Below, in pieces: positions 2,770 to 41,441 of a stretch of 43,594 nt of DNA. A program made the position numbers and the translations under genes. The notes beneath the pieces were generated by a model. That model saw nothing but the letters and a program-made list of their open reading frames with translations. It ran no database searches and had not been told where the DNA came from. Source of the DNA: Kagunavirus PDP21P8; the sequence record OZ035783.1. One strand, written 5' to 3'. Position 1 is the stretch's first letter, and every line of letters begins with the position of its first letter.

Positions 2770-2800
2770 AAAGGCCCCATTACGGGGCCTTAGTTTTATT
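2770..2800. terminator. bidirectional rho-independent terminator
   Basis: hairpin AGGCCCC-loop-GGGGCCT flanked by A-run on the left and T-run on the right; sits between convergent genes. Confidence 0.6.
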
Positions 2801-3080
2801 TCTTTCCTAATGCTTTCTCGATTGCTCTGTTTGCCAGATTCAACGGATGGTCTTTATGGCAATCATCGGAAGATACTGCGCAAACATCCTCAACGTAATC
2901 GCGAAGCTGGCGAAGAGCTTCAAGTAACTCGGGTGCTGAGGAAATAAGTTTTGAGTTAGCCAATTTTACTGAGGCCTTCTCCTGCATACTCATTACCTCC
3001 GCCACATAAACGTCACCCGCCCATATAGCCGTTCCGCAATTAACCCATTCACCGTTCGTACCTTTAAATTTGTTAGCCAT
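2796..3080 (-). CDS. hypothetical protein (antisense moron in head module)
   Basis: 94 aa ORF on minus strand; strong SD AGGAGG 7 nt upstream of ATG; own promoter and terminator. Confidence 0.55.
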   Translation of the reverse strand: MANKFKGTNGEWVNCGTAIWAGDVYVAEVMSMQEKASVKLANSKLISSAPELLEALRQLRDYVEDVCAVSSDDCHKDHPLNLANRAIEKALGKK

Positions 3081-3104: not shown

Positions 3105-3136
3105 TGAATAGTACCCTATTATATTGGTGTCTGCAA
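3105..3136 (-). promoter_or_regulatory. early-type promoter with AATAG-N4-CTATT operator
   Basis: minus-strand reading TTGCAG-17 nt-TACTAT; inverted repeat GAATAG-tacc-CTATT overlaps -10; 23 bp identical to site at 14310-14332. Confidence 0.5.
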
Positions 3137-3180
3137 ATATTATTTTTATGCGTTACACTGTCGATACTACAGGAGGGCTT

Positions 3181-4224: not shown

Positions 4225-4685
4225 TGATGGGCTTTTTCAAAGTAACTGATGTACCGTCACGTCGCGTAGTCCAGTACGCCCGCGTGTCTGGCTCTGGCGA
4301 GAACGTGGTATTTATTGAAGATGAAAGTGTACTCGGTACACCTGTAGACGATATGCCGTTCGCAGATAAGACCGGTATTGCGCTGCCAGCGGCGGGTATG
4401 CTTTATGAGATTCCGTATCTGGCGGACGCGGGCGATGTGTATTTCTCTGTGCAACCGCAGGACACGGAACTGGCAGACGGCAGCGCAACTATCACTGTCG
4501 AAGTTAAGGCGGGCAAAGCACCGTATGCGCTGACCTGGTACAAAGACGGTAAGGAAGTGGTAAACGCCCCGGAAGAGGCTTTGTCTCTGACGGTTAATGC
4601 GGTGGGTGAATACTTCGTTAAAGTTACCGATGCCGATGGTGTAGAGGCGGTAAGCAAAGCGGCGAAGGTTAATAAGCCAGAATAA
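4224..4685 (+). CDS. Ig-like domain protein
   Basis: C-terminal APYALTWYKDGKEV...GEYFVKVTD resembles I-set Ig fold signature; TAATG overlap with upstream gene. Confidence 0.5.
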   Translation: MMGFFKVTDVPSRRVVQYARVSGSGENVVFIEDESVLGTPVDDMPFADKTGIALPAAGMLYEIPYLADAGDVYFSVQPQDTELADGSATITVEVKAGKAPYALTWYKDGKEVVNAPEEALSLTVNAVGEYFVKVTDADGVEAVSKAAKVNKPE

Positions 4686-4689
4686 ACTG

Positions 4690-4711
4690 AAGCCCCGAAA
4701 GGGGCTTTTTA
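4690..4711 (+). terminator. rho-independent terminator
   Basis: AGCCCC-gaaa-GGGGCT hairpin followed by TTTTT. Confidence 0.6.
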
Positions 4712-4774
4712 GCGCCTGCGATTATTCCAGTTATTCCACCAAATTGTAAATATTGGAATAAACTATTCGAATAG

Positions 4775-4803
4775 TTGACTTTTCACTAAAAATGTGCTAA
4801 GCT
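4775..4803 (+). promoter_or_regulatory. putative sigma70-like promoter
   Basis: TTGACT-17 nt-TAAGCT; overlaps the perfect palindrome AACTATTCGAATAGTT (4761-4776). Confidence 0.3.
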
Positions 4804-4809
4804 CCACCT

Positions 4810-5004
4810 GAGCTTGTGAAGTATGAACAAGCGACCGCGGCGCGGGCAGGTAACGGAGCGGGACGTAAGTCCTGAGTGTAGTTACGCTGACGCGTTCGGA
4901 AGGGCCATACTCTATTGCTTGTGTAAAAAGTAACTGGTTTACTGAGATTACGCCGTTTCTATGTTTAAATGATAAGGACTAGCGCCCCGCTTTATGGCGG
5001 GGCT
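4810..5004 (+). ncRNA. candidate short transcript (ncRNA or mRNA of a 36-aa peptide)
   Basis: ~200 nt between putative promoter 4775-4803 and terminator 4982-5010; only ORF is 36 codons (4823-4933) with a weak RBS. Confidence 0.2.
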
Positions 5005-5010
5005 TTACTT
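4982..5010 (+). terminator. rho-independent terminator
   Basis: GCCCCGC-tttatg-GCGGGGC hairpin followed by TTTACTT. Confidence 0.55.
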
Positions 5011-5027
5011 ATCGAGAAAGGAGAAAC

Positions 5028-5414
5028 ATGAATCTTAAAGCAACTGTCGTAGCAGGAGCATGTTTCATCATCCTGTTATACACGCACGGCTACTATCAAT
5101 ACCGCAGCGGCTGGAACGGAGGCAGGGCTAATCTAGTTTCGCAGCAACAGCAGAAAGCACAGGCTGAGCTAGCGAAGAAAACACAACGGCAGCAGCAGGA
5201 CGAATCAAAGGCCGCCGCCGCTGACAACGAAGGCAAGACGAAATCAGAGGTGATTACCCGTGAAGTCGTTAAGTACATTAAAACGCCTGGCCGCAGCGTG
5301 TGCACTTTCGACGATGCTCGCGTCCTGCTCAAGTCCCGCGCCGTCGCAAACGCCAATTCCATCCCCGGATACGACGATGATGCAGCCGCCATGCAAACTG
5401 GCCGCGCCAAGTAG
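5028..5414 (+). CDS. i-spanin (Rz-like)
   Basis: 128 aa; N-terminal TM segment (VVAGACFIILLY), Gln/Ala/Lys-rich coiled-coil periplasmic region; contains an embedded +1-frame lipoprotein ORF. Confidence 0.55.
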   Translation: MNLKATVVAGACFIILLYTHGYYQYRSGWNGGRANLVSQQQQKAQAELAKKTQRQQQDESKAAAADNEGKTKSEVITREVVKYIKTPGRSVCTFDDARVLLKSRAVANANSIPGYDDDAAAMQTGRAK

Positions 5415-5523
5415 CGATGCCGATGAGGATTTAGCCATTGACGTTCAGAACACAGAATGTGTACGGCAACTGCGTCTGAAAGTGTTCATGTTGCAGGATT
5501 ACGTGAGGAATATTCTGGAATAG
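5260..5523 (+). CDS. o-spanin (Rz1-like lipoprotein)
   Basis: 87 aa; signal peptide with lipobox LASC; Pro-rich mature region; starts inside the Rz-like gene in +1 frame and extends past its stop. Confidence 0.55.
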   Translation: MKSLSTLKRLAAACALSTMLASCSSPAPSQTPIPSPDTTMMQPPCKLAAPSSDADEDLAIDVQNTECVRQLRLKVFMLQDYVRNILE

Positions 5524-5605
5524 TTGCCTTGCATGTTGGAATAATTTATTCTTGACATGTAAATCCGGGTGGCCCGGGTTCCAACGTCCAGGGGACATAC
5601 TGACT

Positions 5606-11766: not shown

Positions 11767-11810
11767 CTTGTGGTATAAGAAGTGTAAAGGATAGCTTTAG
11801 CGGGCGAAAA

Positions 11811-11839
11811 AGAGAGGGGTCGTGCCCTCTCTTTCCTTT
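11811..11839 (+). terminator. rho-independent terminator
   Basis: AGAGAGGG-gtcgtg-CCCTCTCT hairpin then TTCCTTT. Confidence 0.6.
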
Positions 11840-11873
11840 ATCTGATAAATACACGAGCCTGACGAGGTGAATA

Positions 11874-12506
11874 ATGTTTCTGTATGAAGAATTTGAAAAG
11901 ATACCCGCGTCAAAACGGGCGGTATCATACCGTAAAACAATCTGCGGTGTCGGTATCAACGACGCTGATTTTACCGCTAGTATTTTCAACGGCAAAAAGT
12001 CTGTTAATCACCCAGTATATGATATTTGGTATGCGATGATATTCAGGTGCTACCACGGGGTCGCCAAGCACCCAACATACGCAGGTGTGGTAGTGTGCGA
12101 AGACTGGCTATATTTCTCCAACTACTTTAAATGGTATAAAGATAATTACGTAGATTGTTGGCATGTAGACAAGGATTTACTTACAGATGCCAAAGAATAC
12201 TCACCGGAGACATGCATCTTTGTCCCAAGAGTTTTAAACAACTTCCTAACCGACAGCGCAGCGGCCAGAGGAAACCTACCAATAGGCCTTACTTATAGAA
12301 AAACAAACGGCAAGATACGGTGCCGTGTTAACAATCCCATAACCGGGGTACGGGAAAACTTAGGCGATTTTATTGACTTGGACGAAGCCATCAAGGCCAG
12401 AACGTTGCGGAAATTGGAAATAGCAGAAGAACTTAAGCCGCTTATGGATTCCATAGACGGGAGAATATGCCCAAGAGCCGTTTCGGTAATTAATTCACAA
12501 CGATAA
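11874..12506 (+). CDS. AP2-like DNA-binding domain protein, possible homing endonuclease
   Basis: C-terminal GLTYRKTNGKIRCRV...LGDFIDLDEAIKA resembles AP2 domain; gene is visibly AT-richer than flanks; no HNH motif identified. Confidence 0.35.
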   Translation: MFLYEEFEKIPASKRAVSYRKTICGVGINDADFTASIFNGKKSVNHPVYDIWYAMIFRCYHGVAKHPTYAGVVVCEDWLYFSNYFKWYKDNYVDCWHVDKDLLTDAKEYSPETCIFVPRVLNNFLTDSAAARGNLPIGLTYRKTNGKIRCRVNNPITGVRENLGDFIDLDEAIKARTLRKLEIAEELKPLMDSIDGRICPRAVSVINSQR

Positions 12507-12537: not shown

Positions 12538-12765
12538 CTAATCAATGTTACTCCTGTACTCCCGTAACTTTTCAAGACTTTCAATTGCTTCGTTAAGGTC
12601 CGTGTCTGCGTCCTTATGCCCTCTGCCACCCATGCATAACAGTTTCTTTAACGCGTGCTGTAACGCGGGGTCGTGGATAACGAAGGCCCTTAGCACATCA
12701 TAAACATCACATGTAATGGAATCGCCTGCGGTGTTGGTGAGTGTATGGTCATATTTTGAAGTCAT
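12538..12765 (-). CDS. small protein, DUF3310-like (tentative)
   Basis: 75 aa; pattern D-x-YDV...HALKKLL..GGRGHK..DL.EA resembles the DUF3310 phage family from memory; ATGA-coupled to upstream gene. Confidence 0.4.
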   Translation of the reverse strand: MTSKYDHTLTNTAGDSITCDVYDVLRAFVIHDPALQHALKKLLCMGGRGHKDADTDLNEAIESLEKLREYRSNID

Positions 12766-13892
12766 CCCAGCATCTCCGGTGAAATAGTTAAACGTGCGAC
12801 CTCGCCAAATTCGGCGCTATAAGTAATTACATTTGCACTACGGCCCGACATCCAACCTCCGCGGGAGGCGTAGGCGTCTTTAGCCGCTAAGGTGCGGTGT
12901 TGCTCAACAATCATGTTACGGCTTTCTACAATCTTCTGGTGGTGCAGATGGCCTACGTGGGCGTAGCTGTAAACACTCTCGCCGAACGCTTTACGGAACT
13001 TGGCAATCATAACAGGTTCAATAGCGTCGAATCGTGCTTTATGCCCGTGATGGAAGAACAGCGTCGTTTTGCCGTGTTGCACCATCTTGTAAACATCCGG
13101 TGACGTATCGACGAACACACGCGGCTCATTGTCATACAGCGTACTGAACATCTCAGCCAACCAAATCATGCCACTTTCGTCGTGATTCCCTTGCACGATA
13201 AGCAAGCGAACATTTTTATGCTTAACCAGCGCCATATCGACAACACGGCGGACCATGCGAATCATGTAGCGGACAAGTTTCTGGTAACGGGTGTCGGCGT
13301 CAAGGGCGTGACCGCTTGCAGGTGTAACGGCAACCAGACTATCGAAGTGCGCGAAGTCGCCCAGCAGGTTAATAACCCCAGTCCCCGCATCCGGTGCTTT
13401 CTGGAATGCCGCATCGAACCAACGGGAGAACAGGTCTTCTGCAATCTTCATATCCCAGTCGTCGCCACTCTCGTCGGCCCAGGCCAGCATACCGAGATGG
13501 AAATCAGACACAGTGTAAAGGTTGAGTAGCTTGTCGTCCCGTTTGGCGCGAACGGCTTTAACAGGAGCAACGGGGGTAATCTCCGACTTCATGCCCTCGA
13601 TTATGGCTTTCATCAACTCGACCTGACGTTCGGCATCGGTGTCGGTCTTAACCCATTGCAACTTAGTGTTGCCGAACTCATCAACCAGCGACGATGTGCC
13701 TTTAATCTTGTAGCCATCTGGTACAAGGTGGCTAACGTCACGCCCGTGGCCTACACCTTTCTTAGCCAGCTTCGCTTTACGGATACGAATAACTCGGTCT
13801 GAGATGCCGTATTTACGGGCGATGTCTACGTTCTTCATCCCGGCGTTCAATTCTTCCTGTAATTGTTCGTCGGTTATTTTCTTCCGGGCCAT
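12762..13892 (-). CDS. HTH-fused calcineurin-like metallophosphoesterase
   Basis: 376 aa; N-terminal HTH (DIARKYGISDRVIRIRKAK); motifs SDFH, LLGDFAHFD, QGNHDES, HHGH, GHLHH match the D-x-H / GD / GNH[DE] / GHxH metallophosphatase set; SD GAGGAAG. Confidence 0.7.
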   Translation of the reverse strand: MARKKITDEQLQEELNAGMKNVDIARKYGISDRVIRIRKAKLAKKGVGHGRDVSHLVPDGYKIKGTSSLVDEFGNTKLQWVKTDTDAERQVELMKAIIEGMKSEITPVAPVKAVRAKRDDKLLNLYTVSDFHLGMLAWADESGDDWDMKIAEDLFSRWFDAAFQKAPDAGTGVINLLGDFAHFDSLVAVTPASGHALDADTRYQKLVRYMIRMVRRVVDMALVKHKNVRLLIVQGNHDESGMIWLAEMFSTLYDNEPRVFVDTSPDVYKMVQHGKTTLFFHHGHKARFDAIEPVMIAKFRKAFGESVYSYAHVGHLHHQKIVESRNMIVEQHRTLAAKDAYASRGGWMSGRSANVITYSAEFGEVARLTISPEMLG

Positions 13893-13957
13893 GCTTACTT
13901 CCTCGTGTTTAGGATTTGTCCTATTTAACCACAGTGCATTCCTTTAAATAAAGGCGA

Positions 13958-14284
13958 CTATTTACTTTCTGCGCCTATTGCCCACCCAGTCATTACCATT
14001 TGCAGGCGGGTAGCGGTCAGTAGGCTGTAAAACGCGTCTCCGTTTTTCTCTACAGAACGTATTACCGTGTATGTTACGGCTTGCGGAGGCAGGCCCGATT
14101 TACCAACCTCTACGGCTGCCTCACACTCGCGAACGGTAGAGTCCTTAAATGCCTTTACAATAGTAGGGTCGGCTCTATCAAGCACACCAGAAGTCATAAG
14201 AACGGATTCACTAAACACCTGTTCACACGGAGACCCAAAAGTAGCAAAAGACATAAAACCAAGAGCTAACACTAATTTACGCAT
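13958..14284 (-). CDS. secreted protein (signal peptide, no lipobox)
   Basis: 108 aa; N-terminal MRKLVLALGFMSFATFG hydrophobic signal; two Cys; SD GAGGAA; first gene of antisense cassette. Confidence 0.5.
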   Translation of the reverse strand: MRKLVLALGFMSFATFGSPCEQVFSESVLMTSGVLDRADPTIVKAFKDSTVRECEAAVEVGKSGLPPQAVTYTVIRSVEKNGDAFYSLLTATRLQMVMTGWAIGAESK

Positions 14285-14309
14285 AATTATTTCCTCAGTA
14301 AGTTACAGG

Positions 14310-14341
14310 TGAATAGTACCCTATTATATTGGGGTGTGCAA
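14310..14341 (-). promoter_or_regulatory. early-type promoter with AATAG-N4-CTATT operator
   Basis: minus-strand reading TTGCAC-17 nt-TACTAT, nearly identical to promoter at 36243-36274; ends ~26 nt upstream of the ATG at 14284. Confidence 0.5.
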
Positions 14342-14448
14342 GTAGTGTGCTAGAATAAGTTTGCGCCTAGTGTCGCACACGAAAAGCGGGTGGTTCCCGT
14401 CTGGCGCGTCAACCTTAACCTGTAACCTCTTAACCAAAGGACTAAAGA

Positions 14449-35641: not shown

Positions 35642-35808
35642 TTTACATTCTCCTTAATCCACGCTTCCACTTTCTCCGGGTCGAAAGTACCCGGCTGCCG
35701 GCGGCCCATAATACGGATGCAACAATCCGGGAACTTCCCACTCTTTAACCAGTTATTCAGCGTGCGACGGGTAACCCCGATACGCTCGGCTACTTCATTC
35801 TGTGTCAT
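35638..35808 (-). CDS. AlpA/excisionase-like HTH DNA-binding protein
   Basis: MTQNEVAERIGVTRRTLNNWLKSGKFP helix-turn-helix; ATG 35808 with G-rich SD; first gene of leftward early operon. Confidence 0.55.
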   Translation of the reverse strand: MTQNEVAERIGVTRRTLNNWLKSGKFPDCCIRIMGRRQPGTFDPEKVEAWIKENVK

Positions 35809-35840
35809 TCTCAAACCCCCATTATCAGTTAACGAAACCA

Positions 35841-35869
35841 AGTATACATTGCGAATAATGGGAAATCAA
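35841..35869 (-). promoter_or_regulatory. leftward early promoter
   Basis: minus-strand TTGATT-17 nt-TATACT, ~26 nt upstream of ATG 35808. Confidence 0.45.
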
Positions 35870-35884
35870 ACATAATCGCACCTA

Positions 35885-35913
35885 TTGACATTATGGAAAT
35901 CTTCGTTTAAGGT
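35885..35913 (+). promoter_or_regulatory. rightward promoter, back-to-back with leftward promoter
   Basis: TTGACA-17 nt-TAAGGT. Confidence 0.35.
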
Positions 35914-36149
35914 GCTTCTGTATCTTAGTTACTTTGATTCTTGTTCACCTTGTAAAACCCGCCGAAAACGAGCGCCCAACGCGAAGTGTTAGGCGGCAGT
36001 TTACTGAACATTCGAATTATCGTAACTTTCCTTCCTAAGTATCTCCGGTTGCCCTGGGCAAGCTCTATTCCAATCGGCGGAATATATCTTAAGTATCTGA
36101 TTTTCTTAAAGTGCCGTAGATTCGCAACCGTAAAAATGTAACGATTATT

Positions 36150-36173
36150 GGGCAGGCTTAAGGCCTGCCCTTT
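36150..36173 (+). terminator. stem-loop, weak intrinsic terminator
   Basis: GGGCAGGC-ttaag-GCCTGCCC followed by TTT. Confidence 0.35.
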
Positions 36174-36242
36174 AGTTACCAAGTAATAAGAATAAAGGCA
36201 CAGCCATACCTGAAGAATCACAACGGCAACGTAACTTTTCTC

Positions 36243-36274
36243 TTGCACACCCCAACATAATAGGATACTATTCA
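36243..36274 (+). promoter_or_regulatory. early-type promoter with AATAG-N4-CTATT operator
   Basis: TTGCAC-17 nt-TACTAT with AATAG-gata-CTATT overlapping -10; ~30 nt upstream of ATG 36306. Confidence 0.5.
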
Positions 36275-36305
36275 CTTATCGAAACGAGACAGAGGAGTGA
36301 GGGTT

Positions 36306-37500: not shown

Positions 37501-37671
37501 ATGGAACTGAATGACATCGTAACCTGGACCGGTAGAAACGGAGAAAAGCGATTCGGGCTTATTGTTGCGTCAGACGGCAACAAGTACCGTGTTATGCGAT
37601 GGCGTCAGTGGGCACGACGCCCGAGGTACTACTGGATTCGTGGCGAACGATTATCGTTAAAACACCAATAA
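37501..37671 (+). CDS. small basic protein
   Basis: 56 aa, SD GGGAGA; preceded by AATAG/CTATT half-sites at 37451-37485. Confidence 0.35.
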   Translation: MELNDIVTWTGRNGEKRFGLIVASDGNKYRVMRWRQWARRPRYYWIRGERLSLKHQ

Positions 37672-39681: not shown

Positions 39682-39990
39682 TTGGATAAATTTACTGAAA
39701 CAGTGACGGGCTGGCTTCTCGCTGCCGCACTCGCCGGAGGGGTCATCGGACTACGACAACATAAGTCCGCTATTTCCGGCCCTATCGACGGATTCTGCTT
39801 TATTGCTACTGGCTTCACTTGCGCCGTATTCGGTGCACCTCTCGCTGCCCAATGGTTTGGCATCACAGGCGAGCGTGAAATCGCTGGCCTCGGATTCATC
39901 ATTGCCATTCTCTGGATGCCTATTTATTCCCGTCTCTCCGGTATTGTTGCCGGAGAATACATCTCACGTCGAGGAGGCCCGGATGAATGA
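39682..39990 (+). CDS. holin (putative)
   Basis: 102 aa with multiple TM segments, TTG start with SD GGAGGA; immediately upstream of endolysin. Confidence 0.55.
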   Translation: MDKFTETVTGWLLAAALAGGVIGLRQHKSAISGPIDGFCFIATGFTCAVFGAPLAAQWFGITGEREIAGLGFIIAILWMPIYSRLSGIVAGEYISRRGGPDE

Positions 39991-40255
39991 GTTATTCTGG
40001 TTCGCCGTAATGTTGGCGATGGGCGCTTCGTCCCTGTTCAACGTGTATAATGAATGTGTTGACGACGGGCTATTCGGTCGGGTGCTCTATATCCTGACTG
40101 CTATCGTCTGCGCCGCCGGATGTATCCACCTGTTACAGGGCAGCATGTCACCTACGCTGCCAGAAACCTTAATCACATTAGTTGCGCTGCGCCAGATTCG
40201 TCAGGCGTGGCTGTCATACGGAGGACATAAGCGTGTCTCGAAATATTTCAGATAA
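39983..40255 (+). CDS. lysis-associated membrane protein (holin/antiholin partner, putative)
   Basis: 90 aa, two TM segments, overlaps both neighbours. Confidence 0.4.
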   Translation: MNELFWFAVMLAMGASSLFNVYNECVDDGLFGRVLYILTAIVCAAGCIHLLQGSMSPTLPETLITLVALRQIRQAWLSYGGHKRVSKYFR

Positions 40256-40718
40256 TGGATTGCATTTTACCGCTGCGTTTGAGGGATTCCGTGGAACCGC
40301 GTATCGTGCTACACCAAACGAGAAGTACTTAACCACAGGCTACGGGCACTACGGGCCAGACGTGACCCCCGGTAAAACCATCACCCCGGGCCAAGGCCTC
40401 CTGTTACTGAATCGCGATATGGCTAAAGCCGTAGCTGCGGTTGATGCAGCAGCACACCATTCATTGACACAGGCACAGTTCGATGCAGTGTGCGACCTGG
40501 TGTATAACGCTGGTGCTGGTGCCATTGCGGCTACTACAGGCACGGGTAAGGCCCTGCGTTCCGGTGATATTTCGACGCTGCGGGCTAAGCTGACGCTGTT
40601 CATCAACCAGAACGGCAAACCGTTACTCGGCCTGCGTCGCCGTACCGCAGGCCGCCTGGCGCTGTTCGATGGTAAGCCGTGGCAAGAGGCTGAGGCTATC
40701 GGGAGGGCTGTTAAATGA
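40233..40718 (+). CDS. endolysin, GH24 lysozyme-like
   Basis: GTG 40233 with SD GGAGGA; AAFEGFRGTAY...TTGYGH matches phage lysozyme signature. Confidence 0.75.
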   Translation: MSRNISDNGLHFTAAFEGFRGTAYRATPNEKYLTTGYGHYGPDVTPGKTITPGQGLLLLNRDMAKAVAAVDAAAHHSLTQAQFDAVCDLVYNAGAGAIAATTGTGKALRSGDISTLRAKLTLFINQNGKPLLGLRRRTAGRLALFDGKPWQEAEAIGRAVK

Positions 40719-40846
40719 TGGACGAATATGAAGGCGTTTAGTAAACTTATCCCTACGCTGTTTGTGCTTGCATACTAAGCCCCGGTAAACCCGAAGCAGC
40801 AGCCCAAGCGGTGGAGACTGCGTAGGGTTCAGGGGCTTATGACCGA

Positions 40847-40876
40847 AACCCGGACCGCGAATCCGGGTTTTATTTT
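40847..40876 (+). terminator. rho-independent terminator
   Basis: AACCCGGA-loop-TCCGGGTT followed by TTTTATTTT. Confidence 0.65.
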
Positions 40877-40881
40877 ACCAA

Positions 40882-40910
40882 TTGACACCTAAGACTAATC
40901 CGACGATACT
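40882..40910 (+). promoter_or_regulatory. putative sigma70-like promoter
   Basis: TTGACA-17 nt-GATACT. Confidence 0.3.
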
Positions 40911-40916
40911 TAAATC

Positions 40917-40981
40917 ACCTCCTGTTCCATCCCTCTGCTCTCCAGTTTTATCCCGGCCCTGACCCAGCCGGGATTTTTTTT
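40917..40981 (+). ncRNA. candidate ~65-nt small RNA
   Basis: no ORF; pyrimidine-rich CACCUCCUGUUCCAUCCCUCUGCUCUCC then strong terminator hairpin. Confidence 0.2.
40950..40981 (+). terminator. rho-independent terminator
   Basis: ATCCCGGC-9 nt loop-GCCGGGAT followed by eight T. Confidence 0.7.
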
Positions 40982-41003
40982 ATCTGTTTTCCACAATGAC
41001 TAG

Positions 41004-41032
41004 TTGACTATTATCTACGACCCTATTATATC
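41004..41032 (+). promoter_or_regulatory. putative sigma70-like promoter
   Basis: TTGACT-17 nt-TATATC with two CTATTAT elements; upstream of small-gene block. Confidence 0.4.
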
Positions 41033-41065
41033 TACTTCATCGACAACGAGAACGGAGTAGAGAAG

Positions 41066-41143
41066 ATGAGTAACTTCCATAATGAACGTGTGATGCAGTT
41101 CTATCGCAATAATCTGAAAACTAAAGGGGTTTTTGGGAAATGA
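41066..41143 (+). CDS. very small ORF (25 aa)
   Basis: SD GGAGTAGAGAAG; overlaps next ORF start. Confidence 0.25.
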
Positions 41144-41289
41144 AAATCACAGATATCGATGCATTCGAAGACGCGCAACTGATGGCACGCATCGCCGTTG
41201 GTAACCTTAGCGGTAATATCCCGGCCGACGCGTTCTGGGCCGCCGCGATGCAGGCACTGAAAGCAGCTTATGCAGGAGAGAAGAAATGA
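41140..41289 (+). CDS. small hypothetical protein (49 aa)
   Basis: translationally coupled chain of small ORFs. Confidence 0.3.
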
Positions 41290-41441
41290 GCGAACAAGGC
41301 CCAGTAAGCCAGCCGTTACGAGTAGGCCGTAAAGTCAATCACACCCCGTTCCCGACACGCGAGGAACTGATGAAACGTAACAGTTTCCCAGGGCCGGACA
41401 AGAACAAGTATCTCAATCGCATGTGGGGAGAGCGTAAATAA
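41286..41441 (+). CDS. small hypothetical protein (51 aa)
   Basis: ATGA overlap with upstream ORF. Confidence 0.3.
   Translation: MSEQGPVSQPLRVGRKVNHTPFPTREELMKRNSFPGPDKNKYLNRMWGERK

Follow-up and report, generated by a model that had tools for sequence, protein, structure and literature searches.

Two overlapping genes at 5028..5414 and 5260..5523 on the plus strand of Kagunavirus PDP21P8 very probably encode the two subunits of an overlapped two-component spanin of the 'Jersey' family. The analysis covered the whole 43,594-nucleotide stretch of DNA (sequence record OZ035783.1), referred to below as the window. The pair lies in the head gene module, between Mu-F-like head-morphogenesis/Hoc-like genes and a scaffold gene, and the assignment of spanin function draws on homology, topology, and gene context. 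A first-pass annotation had reported the pair and implied that it was new. The finding is real and was rightly interpreted, and it is already known: the genes and the place they occupy have been published and are annotated in GenBank records, and a place among the head genes is normal for Kagunavirus and Jersey-like phages. The result shows that a naive or automatic reading can recover overlapped spanins. The only element described here that has no match to anything known is a structured leader RNA upstream of the pair, which together with its promoter and terminator may be a new regulatory RNA of phages and lends itself to testing.

Genome and closest relatives

The small terminase gene crosses the window ends; the window is therefore a circularly permuted complete genome whose two ends are contiguous. 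Gene order and content agree with the annotated relative Sciku throughout. The closest matches to the 1.1 kb around the spanin genes are Escherichia phages of Kagunavirus (Guernseyvirinae), with 95%–99.6% identity. This region is matched by 384 phage records, with Salmonella Jerseyvirus at lower identity. The genome encodes a complete lysis system, in which a two-component spanin joins two holins and the endolysin.

Topology and family identity of the spanin pair

The i-spanin gene (5028..5414, plus strand, 128 aa) starts with ATG and is preceded by the Shine-Dalgarno sequence AAGGAG at 5018..5023, which is AAGGAG or AAGGGG in relatives. It was identified from its open reading frame, hydropathy, annotated homologues, and a match to phrog_2536 'Rz-like spanin' (E 2.3e-55, residues 1–127). 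Residues ~5–22 (nt 5040–5093) are the sole hydrophobic stretch, in line with the N-terminal transmembrane segment proposed for this product in the first-pass annotation. They are preceded by Lys4 and reach a Kyte-Doolittle maximum of 1.63 over 19 residues and 1.94 over 17. Transmembrane and lipoprotein assignments for the window pair are rule-based, and the TMHMM-based annotation of the Snoke i-spanin homologue gives an N-in/C-out orientation. A single-sequence AlphaFold2 model contains one long helix at residues 3–64 (pLDDT about 70–89) and is unreliable beyond residue 64 (mean pLDDT 60.8, C-terminal half at low confidence). A coiled-coil periplasmic domain had also been proposed; this helix supports the helical part of the proposal at moderate confidence, and the coiled coil itself stays a conjecture. 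The 128-aa product is predicted to sit in the inner membrane in type II orientation, with a periplasmic domain that is mostly helical. Its periplasmic Cys92 is invariant in all nine aligned sequences.

The o-spanin gene (5260..5523, plus strand, 87 aa) has a GTG start in the +1 frame inside the i-spanin gene. Its Shine-Dalgarno sequence, GAGGTG at 5247..5252, lies within the i-spanin coding sequence 7 nt upstream of the GTG, is conserved in relatives, and carries an RBS annotation in Sciku and Snoke. The two open reading frames overlap by 155 bp, and the second continues for 109 bp beyond the i-spanin stop. The signal sequence MKSLSTLKRLAAACALSTMLAS followed by Cys23 satisfies the PROSITE PS51257-type lipobox rule; the lipobox LASC occupies nt 5317–5328, and the n-region has K2, K8, and R9. 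Because Ser is at the +2 position of this lipoprotein signal, the Lol sorting rule predicts that the o-spanin should sort to the outer membrane. The mature part has 65 aa, including 8 Pro, and a Pro-rich N-terminus. Both open reading frames of the first-pass annotation are present at the coordinates it gave, each with its own Shine-Dalgarno sequence, and the +1 start, LASC lipobox, Pro-rich region, and extension past the first stop were all recovered.

Cys45 and Cys67 of the o-spanin (full-length numbering) are conserved and, with the lipobox, are kept in the relatives compared; the lipobox was found in relatives whose start was set by a filter or by the record annotation. All three features are retained to about 40% identity, including in phages with barely overlapping genes. 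Lipobox ORFs were sought in all six frames of the window, and 11 matched the pattern; only 5260–5523 combines the pattern with conservation, homology to known o-spanins, and overlap with a membrane-protein gene. The o-spanin matches phrog_5672 (E 3.6e-30) and phrog_1267 (E 8e-18). Pfam searches with both proteins gave nothing above threshold (best DUF2514, E 0.011). By tblastn, the i- and o-spanin ORF products were found in 625 and 666 phage records, respectively.

The pair is 85%–93% (~90%) identical to the pairs of K1G, K1ind1, Sciku, and Snoke. In these phages and many others the homologues are annotated as 'i-spanin'/'o-spanin' or 'Rz-like spanin', and the Sciku notes point to the K1G 'overlapping inner/outer membrane spanin' entries. 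A 27-member 'Jersey' family with overlapped architecture has been described, with members that include Jersey, SETP3, SE2, K1G, K1H, K1ind1-3, and others (Kongari et al. 2018, BMC Bioinformatics 19:326; PMC6139136). That study gives the Jersey overlap as 155 bp, reports o-spanin Cys45 and Cys67 as constant, and describes the family as two helices with a linker between them and predicted beta strands (PMC6139136). Since the identity of ~90% is accompanied by a 155-bp overlap and by Cys45 and Cys67 exactly as published, we assign the pair to this family, as the same genes as those of K1G and K1ind1. The overlapped architecture claimed in the first-pass annotation is thus supported by the overlap length, the PHROG spanin families, and the features of the 'Jersey' family.

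The K1G and K1ind1 pairs share with the window the +1 frame, the 155-bp overlap, the lipobox, Cys45 and Cys67, and a location between a Hoc-like gene and a scaffold gene. The differences are minor: K1G and K1ind1 have the lipobox LSAC with Cys22, whereas the window has LASC with Cys23, as do Sciku and Snoke, and there are a few substitutions.

Position of the spanin genes and contexts in relatives

A holin/endolysin cassette placed by the first-pass annotation at 39682–40718 was recovered by profile matches. It contains, all on the plus strand, a class I-like holin (39682..39990; phrog_2359, E 9e-30; annotated as holin/antiholin in Sciku), a second holin/antiholin (39983..40255; phrog_2508, E 5e-34), and a phage lysozyme-type endolysin (40182..40718; PF00959, E 1.2e-26; phrog_7 and phrog_33703). 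The endolysin probably starts at the GTG at 40235, which has the Shine-Dalgarno sequence GGAGGA. The ~350 nt after the endolysin (40719–41065) contain no ORF of at least 25 aa apart from two tiny ones. A promoter-like TTGACA-N17-GATACT is present at 40882–40910, and a terminator is annotated in the equivalent region of Sciku.

Across the junction, the spanin start is 7.9 kb from the endolysin stop and 8.9 kb from the holin start; inside the window the separation is about 34 kb. The earlier figures of about 9 kb and about 34 kb agree with these distances, with the ends contiguous through the terminase gene. The claimed head-module location far from the cassette also held. Neither the six-frame lipobox search nor the ORFs listed for 40650–41350 included a candidate for a second spanin or a u-spanin near the endolysin. 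From the endolysin to the spanins, the plus strand has hairpin terminators at 2771–2791, 4690–4707, and 4984–5003, and a minus-strand gene lies at 2796–3080. Given these terminators, the minus-strand gene, and a promoter-like site between the cassette and the spanins, it is plausible that the lysis genes belong to separate transcription units. Separation of the spanins from the holin and endolysin has been published explicitly for the Guernseyvirinae-like phage Schulenberg. In the Golestan paper, the spanins are ORF7–8 and the holins and endolysin are ORF66–68.

We compared 92 related loci, comprising 80 IMG/VR loci found with an i-spanin profile and 12 GenBank loci. Both spanin partners are encoded in every one. 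A scaffold gene is downstream in 43 loci, which are made up of every relative with at least 43% identity plus Dhillonvirus EK99P-1. In another 42 loci, with 36%–43% identity, a lysozyme gene ends at the i-spanin start, and the remaining seven were assigned to neither context. The check proposed with the first-pass annotation, whether relatives carry spanins beside the endolysin, therefore had a positive answer in 42 of 92 loci, with 43 in the head module.

Two of the IMG/VR loci (L046, 754–3025; L078, 752–2814) contain, in order, a holin (PF16080), a PF00959 lysozyme, an i-spanin, an overlapped o-spanin, and an HNH endonuclease gene, and their spanin pairs still match phrog_2536 (E 2.6e-47) and phrog_5672 (E 4e-21). 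These pairs and that of Klebsiella phage Kp4882-1 resemble the window pair in PHROG families, overlapped architecture, and conserved cysteines. They differ in being 36%–43% identical to it and in adjoining a holin and a PF00959 endolysin, with the HNH endonuclease gene after them. The overlap is 155 bp in Kagunavirus and Jerseyvirus, 125 bp in Kp4882-1, and 8 bp in Cornellvirus VSiP. The head-module slot recurs in Jerseyvirus SeF1, Cornellvirus VSiP, Hafnia phage TS33, and Dhillonvirus EK99P-1; the position is probably ancestral to Guernseyvirinae and is shared with Dhillonvirus. The presence of the same family in canonical cassettes elsewhere supports the functional assignment and shows that the head position is lineage-specific. 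This occurrence of one spanin family in two contexts lends contextual support to its function and is a clear instance of lysis genes having relocated.

A different envelope-modifying role was considered for the pair, for example superinfection exclusion by an inner-membrane protein and an outer-membrane lipoprotein that would act like T5 Llp or Cor; the place outside the lysis cassette would then reflect that role. We regard this as improbable. Distant homologues of both proteins directly follow a holin and an endolysin in 42 of the 92 loci. The two subunits always co-occur, and their conserved cysteines and overlapped architecture are spanin-like. The genome has no other spanin candidate, and Sciku has a separate annotated T4 Imm-like superinfection immunity gene elsewhere. 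A distance of 8–9 kb from the holin and endolysin genes, a place amid head genes, and an upstream promoter-like element and terminator hairpin of its own would suit such a role, and our literature search found no complementation or knockout test, and so no experimental lysis data, for the 'Jersey' family.

Codon-position diversity in the two frames

For the spanin reading, patterns of nucleotide diversity bear on whether both frames are used. In the part that encodes only the i-spanin, diversity among nine Kagunavirus and Jerseyvirus sequences is highest at codon position 3 (0.314), followed by position 1 (0.168) and position 2 (0.122). In the tail that encodes only the o-spanin, the order is the same (0.285, 0.119, and 0.051 for positions 3, 1, and 2; nine relatives), which argues that the second frame is translated and under purifying selection. 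Within the overlap, the most variable class is i-spanin position 3, which is o-spanin position 2 (0.273). The first frame there bears more of the constraint, and the o-spanin signal and linker region tolerates change.

A further alternative, in which the +1 frame is open by chance within a gene and the 128-aa protein is the sole product, is very improbable. A GTG start, a blank Pfam search, and overlap variability that peaks at o-spanin position 2, where the first frame dominates constraint, would suit it. But the ORF continues for 109 nt past the i-spanin stop with tail diversity of 0.285 at position 3 versus 0.051 at position 2, has a conserved Shine-Dalgarno sequence 7 nt upstream, keeps its lipobox, Cys45, and Cys67 to about 40% identity (including Cornellvirus VSiP, with its 8-bp overlap), and has a PHROG match at E 3.6e-30.

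A structured RNA upstream of the spanin genes

The spacer before the spanin genes is 342 nt long and contains three elements on the plus strand. The first is a putative sigma-70-like promoter (4775..4803), TTGACT-N17-TAAGCT with TG at 4795–4796, proposed from sequence and conservation. Its -35 and -10 hexamers are conserved in Kagunavirus and Jerseyvirus; the -10 has 3 of 6 consensus bases, and a consensus scan did not flag the site. The second is a structured RNA of ~110 nt (4809..4920), with a P0 hairpin (4812–4817/4827–4832) and a three-tier hairpin (4834–4899). The third is a terminator-like G+C-rich hairpin followed by TTTACTT (4984..5003), 14 nt before the spanin Shine-Dalgarno sequence, whose stem has compensatory changes (C-G, G-C, and A-U at one pair).

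The predicted RNA structure is well supported by covariation. The core at 4834–4899 occurs in 18 distinct versions that share the same three-tier hairpin fold and have at least six apical stem sequences. Five Kagunavirus sequences were used to build a covariance model, which gave 64 matches at Kagunavirus and Jerseyvirus loci. In the resulting alignment, itself fitted to the covariance model, 96.2% of cells are paired versus 30%–41% with slid partners, 17 of 29 pairs have both-sided changes, and none of 500 shuffles reached the observed covariation score. An independent MAFFT and RNAalifold analysis yielded the outer stem and the stem of the terminator, both with compensatory pairs. The spacer alignment of Kagunavirus and Jerseyvirus likewise has conserved promoter hexamers, several conserved blocks, and conserved hairpins with compensatory changes.

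Rfam searches of the whole window (gathering thresholds) and of 4650–5100 (E up to 5) returned nothing credible; the best scores were 15.7 bits for wcaG (cutoff 42) and 20 bits for STnc430 (cutoff 47). The covariance model had no match at E ≤ 1 at Cornellvirus-like, Hafnia, and Dhillonvirus loci, which have other hairpins or no spacer upstream of the spanins. Some Kagunaviruses (Sciku, L116, L146, L113, L118, L150, and L155) have a paralogue of the leader with the same promoter and a different apical stem. Where flanks were sufficient, the paralogue lies at 37537–37649 in Sciku (L013), 12237–12350 (minus strand) in L146, and 11805–11918 (minus strand) in L116, in each case on the strand of the first holin gene and about 1.9 kb upstream of it, so that one RNA module heads both lysis-gene operons in those phages. 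Pattern and covariance model searches found no second copy in the window, where the paralogue slot (about 35800–36212) holds the minus-strand ORF 35925–36275.

A small ORF within the leader (4823–4933, 36 aa) was considered as a conserved peptide gene and rejected. Its ATG region is deleted in Jerseyvirus, and the paralogues have an ATG whose frame is not that of AFGRA..YC, the one peptide stretch that is conserved. The 16 nt under that stretch are base-paired and invariant, including wobble positions, except for one site that covaries with its partner. The ORF is unlikely to be a gene. It is annotated as 'hypothetical protein' in Sciku and Snoke, and SeF1 annotates a different small ORF, phrog_14923.

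The leader can be compared with put of phage HK022, a ~70-nt RNA of two stem-loops just downstream of a promoter; two copies head two operons, and RNA polymerase reads through terminators in cis (PMC9378689). The leader resembles put in position, size, two hairpins, and a terminator that follows, and in having a second copy in some relatives. It differs in stem proportions and has no sequence similarity to put. Speculatively, the leader could be a cis antitermination or attenuation element, a nut-like protein-binding site, or a free-standing sRNA. Tentatively, the promoter, RNA, and terminator might form a module that controls read-through into the spanin, scaffold, and capsid genes by put/nut-like antitermination or by attenuation, and that co-regulates both halves of the lysis system where the paralogue lies upstream of the holin genes (Sciku, L116, and L146). 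If so, the spanins would be the first coding unit behind a cis-acting RNA, which would go beyond simple co-transcription with head genes. A search for a Q-type antiterminator among nine small or unassigned ORFs gave no match to a Pfam Q family, and the only weak, sub-threshold matches were NinH-like (E 2.7e-4) and Phage_scaffold (E 0.005). A literature search for promoter or terminator work on Jersey-like phages gave nothing relevant.

Repeats near the spanin genes and the minus-strand blocks

The window has exactly two copies of the palindrome GGAATANNNTATTC, one at 4755–4768, just before the -35 hexamer, and one at 5538–5551, in the gap between the spanin and scaffold genes. About 0.6 matches with at most one mismatch are expected by chance. 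The two copies bracket the spanin pair, and each is beside a TTGAC(T/A) hexamer. Half-site repeats of TATTC/GAATA are found at 4722–4737 and 5512–5523. The spanin–scaffold spacer is 89% identical between Kagunavirus and Jerseyvirus, which exceeds the conservation of the spanin proteins. Together the palindromes and half-sites look like a putative array of regulator binding sites.

A 35-nt repeat, TGAATAGTACCCTATTATATTGG..GCAA.TA, is present at 3105–3139 and 14310–14344, with similar sequence near 36213–36291. On the opposite strand it reads TTGCAG-N17-TACTAT. The repeats adjoin minus-strand blocks (2796–3080 and about 12762–14300) inserted among the plus-strand late genes, and they are probably promoters of these inserts. 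In plus orientation, the element precedes an operon that starts near 36297.

Comparison with the spanins of lambda and T4

The window pair resembles lambda Rz/Rz1 in general design. Both combine a type II inner-membrane subunit with an outer-membrane lipoprotein whose gene uses the +1 frame of that DNA, both have periplasmic cysteines and a Pro-rich o-spanin, and both are presumed to act by membrane fusion once the murein has been degraded. The lambda proteins have no detectable sequence similarity to the window pair (no Pfam Rz/Rz1 match). Their genes are embedded and belong to the S-R-Rz lysis cassette, whereas those of the window are overlapped and in the head module.

By analogy with work on lambda Rz/Rz1, contact between the C-termini would join the i- and o-spanin into a complex across the periplasm, and Cys92 of the i-spanin and Cys45/Cys67 of the o-spanin may form covalent disulfide dimers. 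An intact murein mesh would restrain the complex. Once the holin and endolysin remove the mesh, the complex would collapse, fuse the inner and outer membranes, and complete lysis. On this model the trigger for activity would be the degradation of murein, not the synthesis of the pair, which could therefore accumulate harmlessly alongside the late head proteins. With such gating, a position among the head genes would work and linkage to the holin would be dispensable, as in T4.

Two-component spanin genes are usually linked to those of the holin and endolysin, but this is no strict criterion, and T4 is an accepted exception. The T4 genes pseT.3/pseT.2 are a precedent for spanin genes unlinked from the holin (t) and endolysin (e) genes, and the lysis genes of T4-like genomes are unclustered (Kongari et al.; PMC6139136). 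The T4 pair differs from that of the window in its separated architecture, unrelated sequence, and other genomic context.
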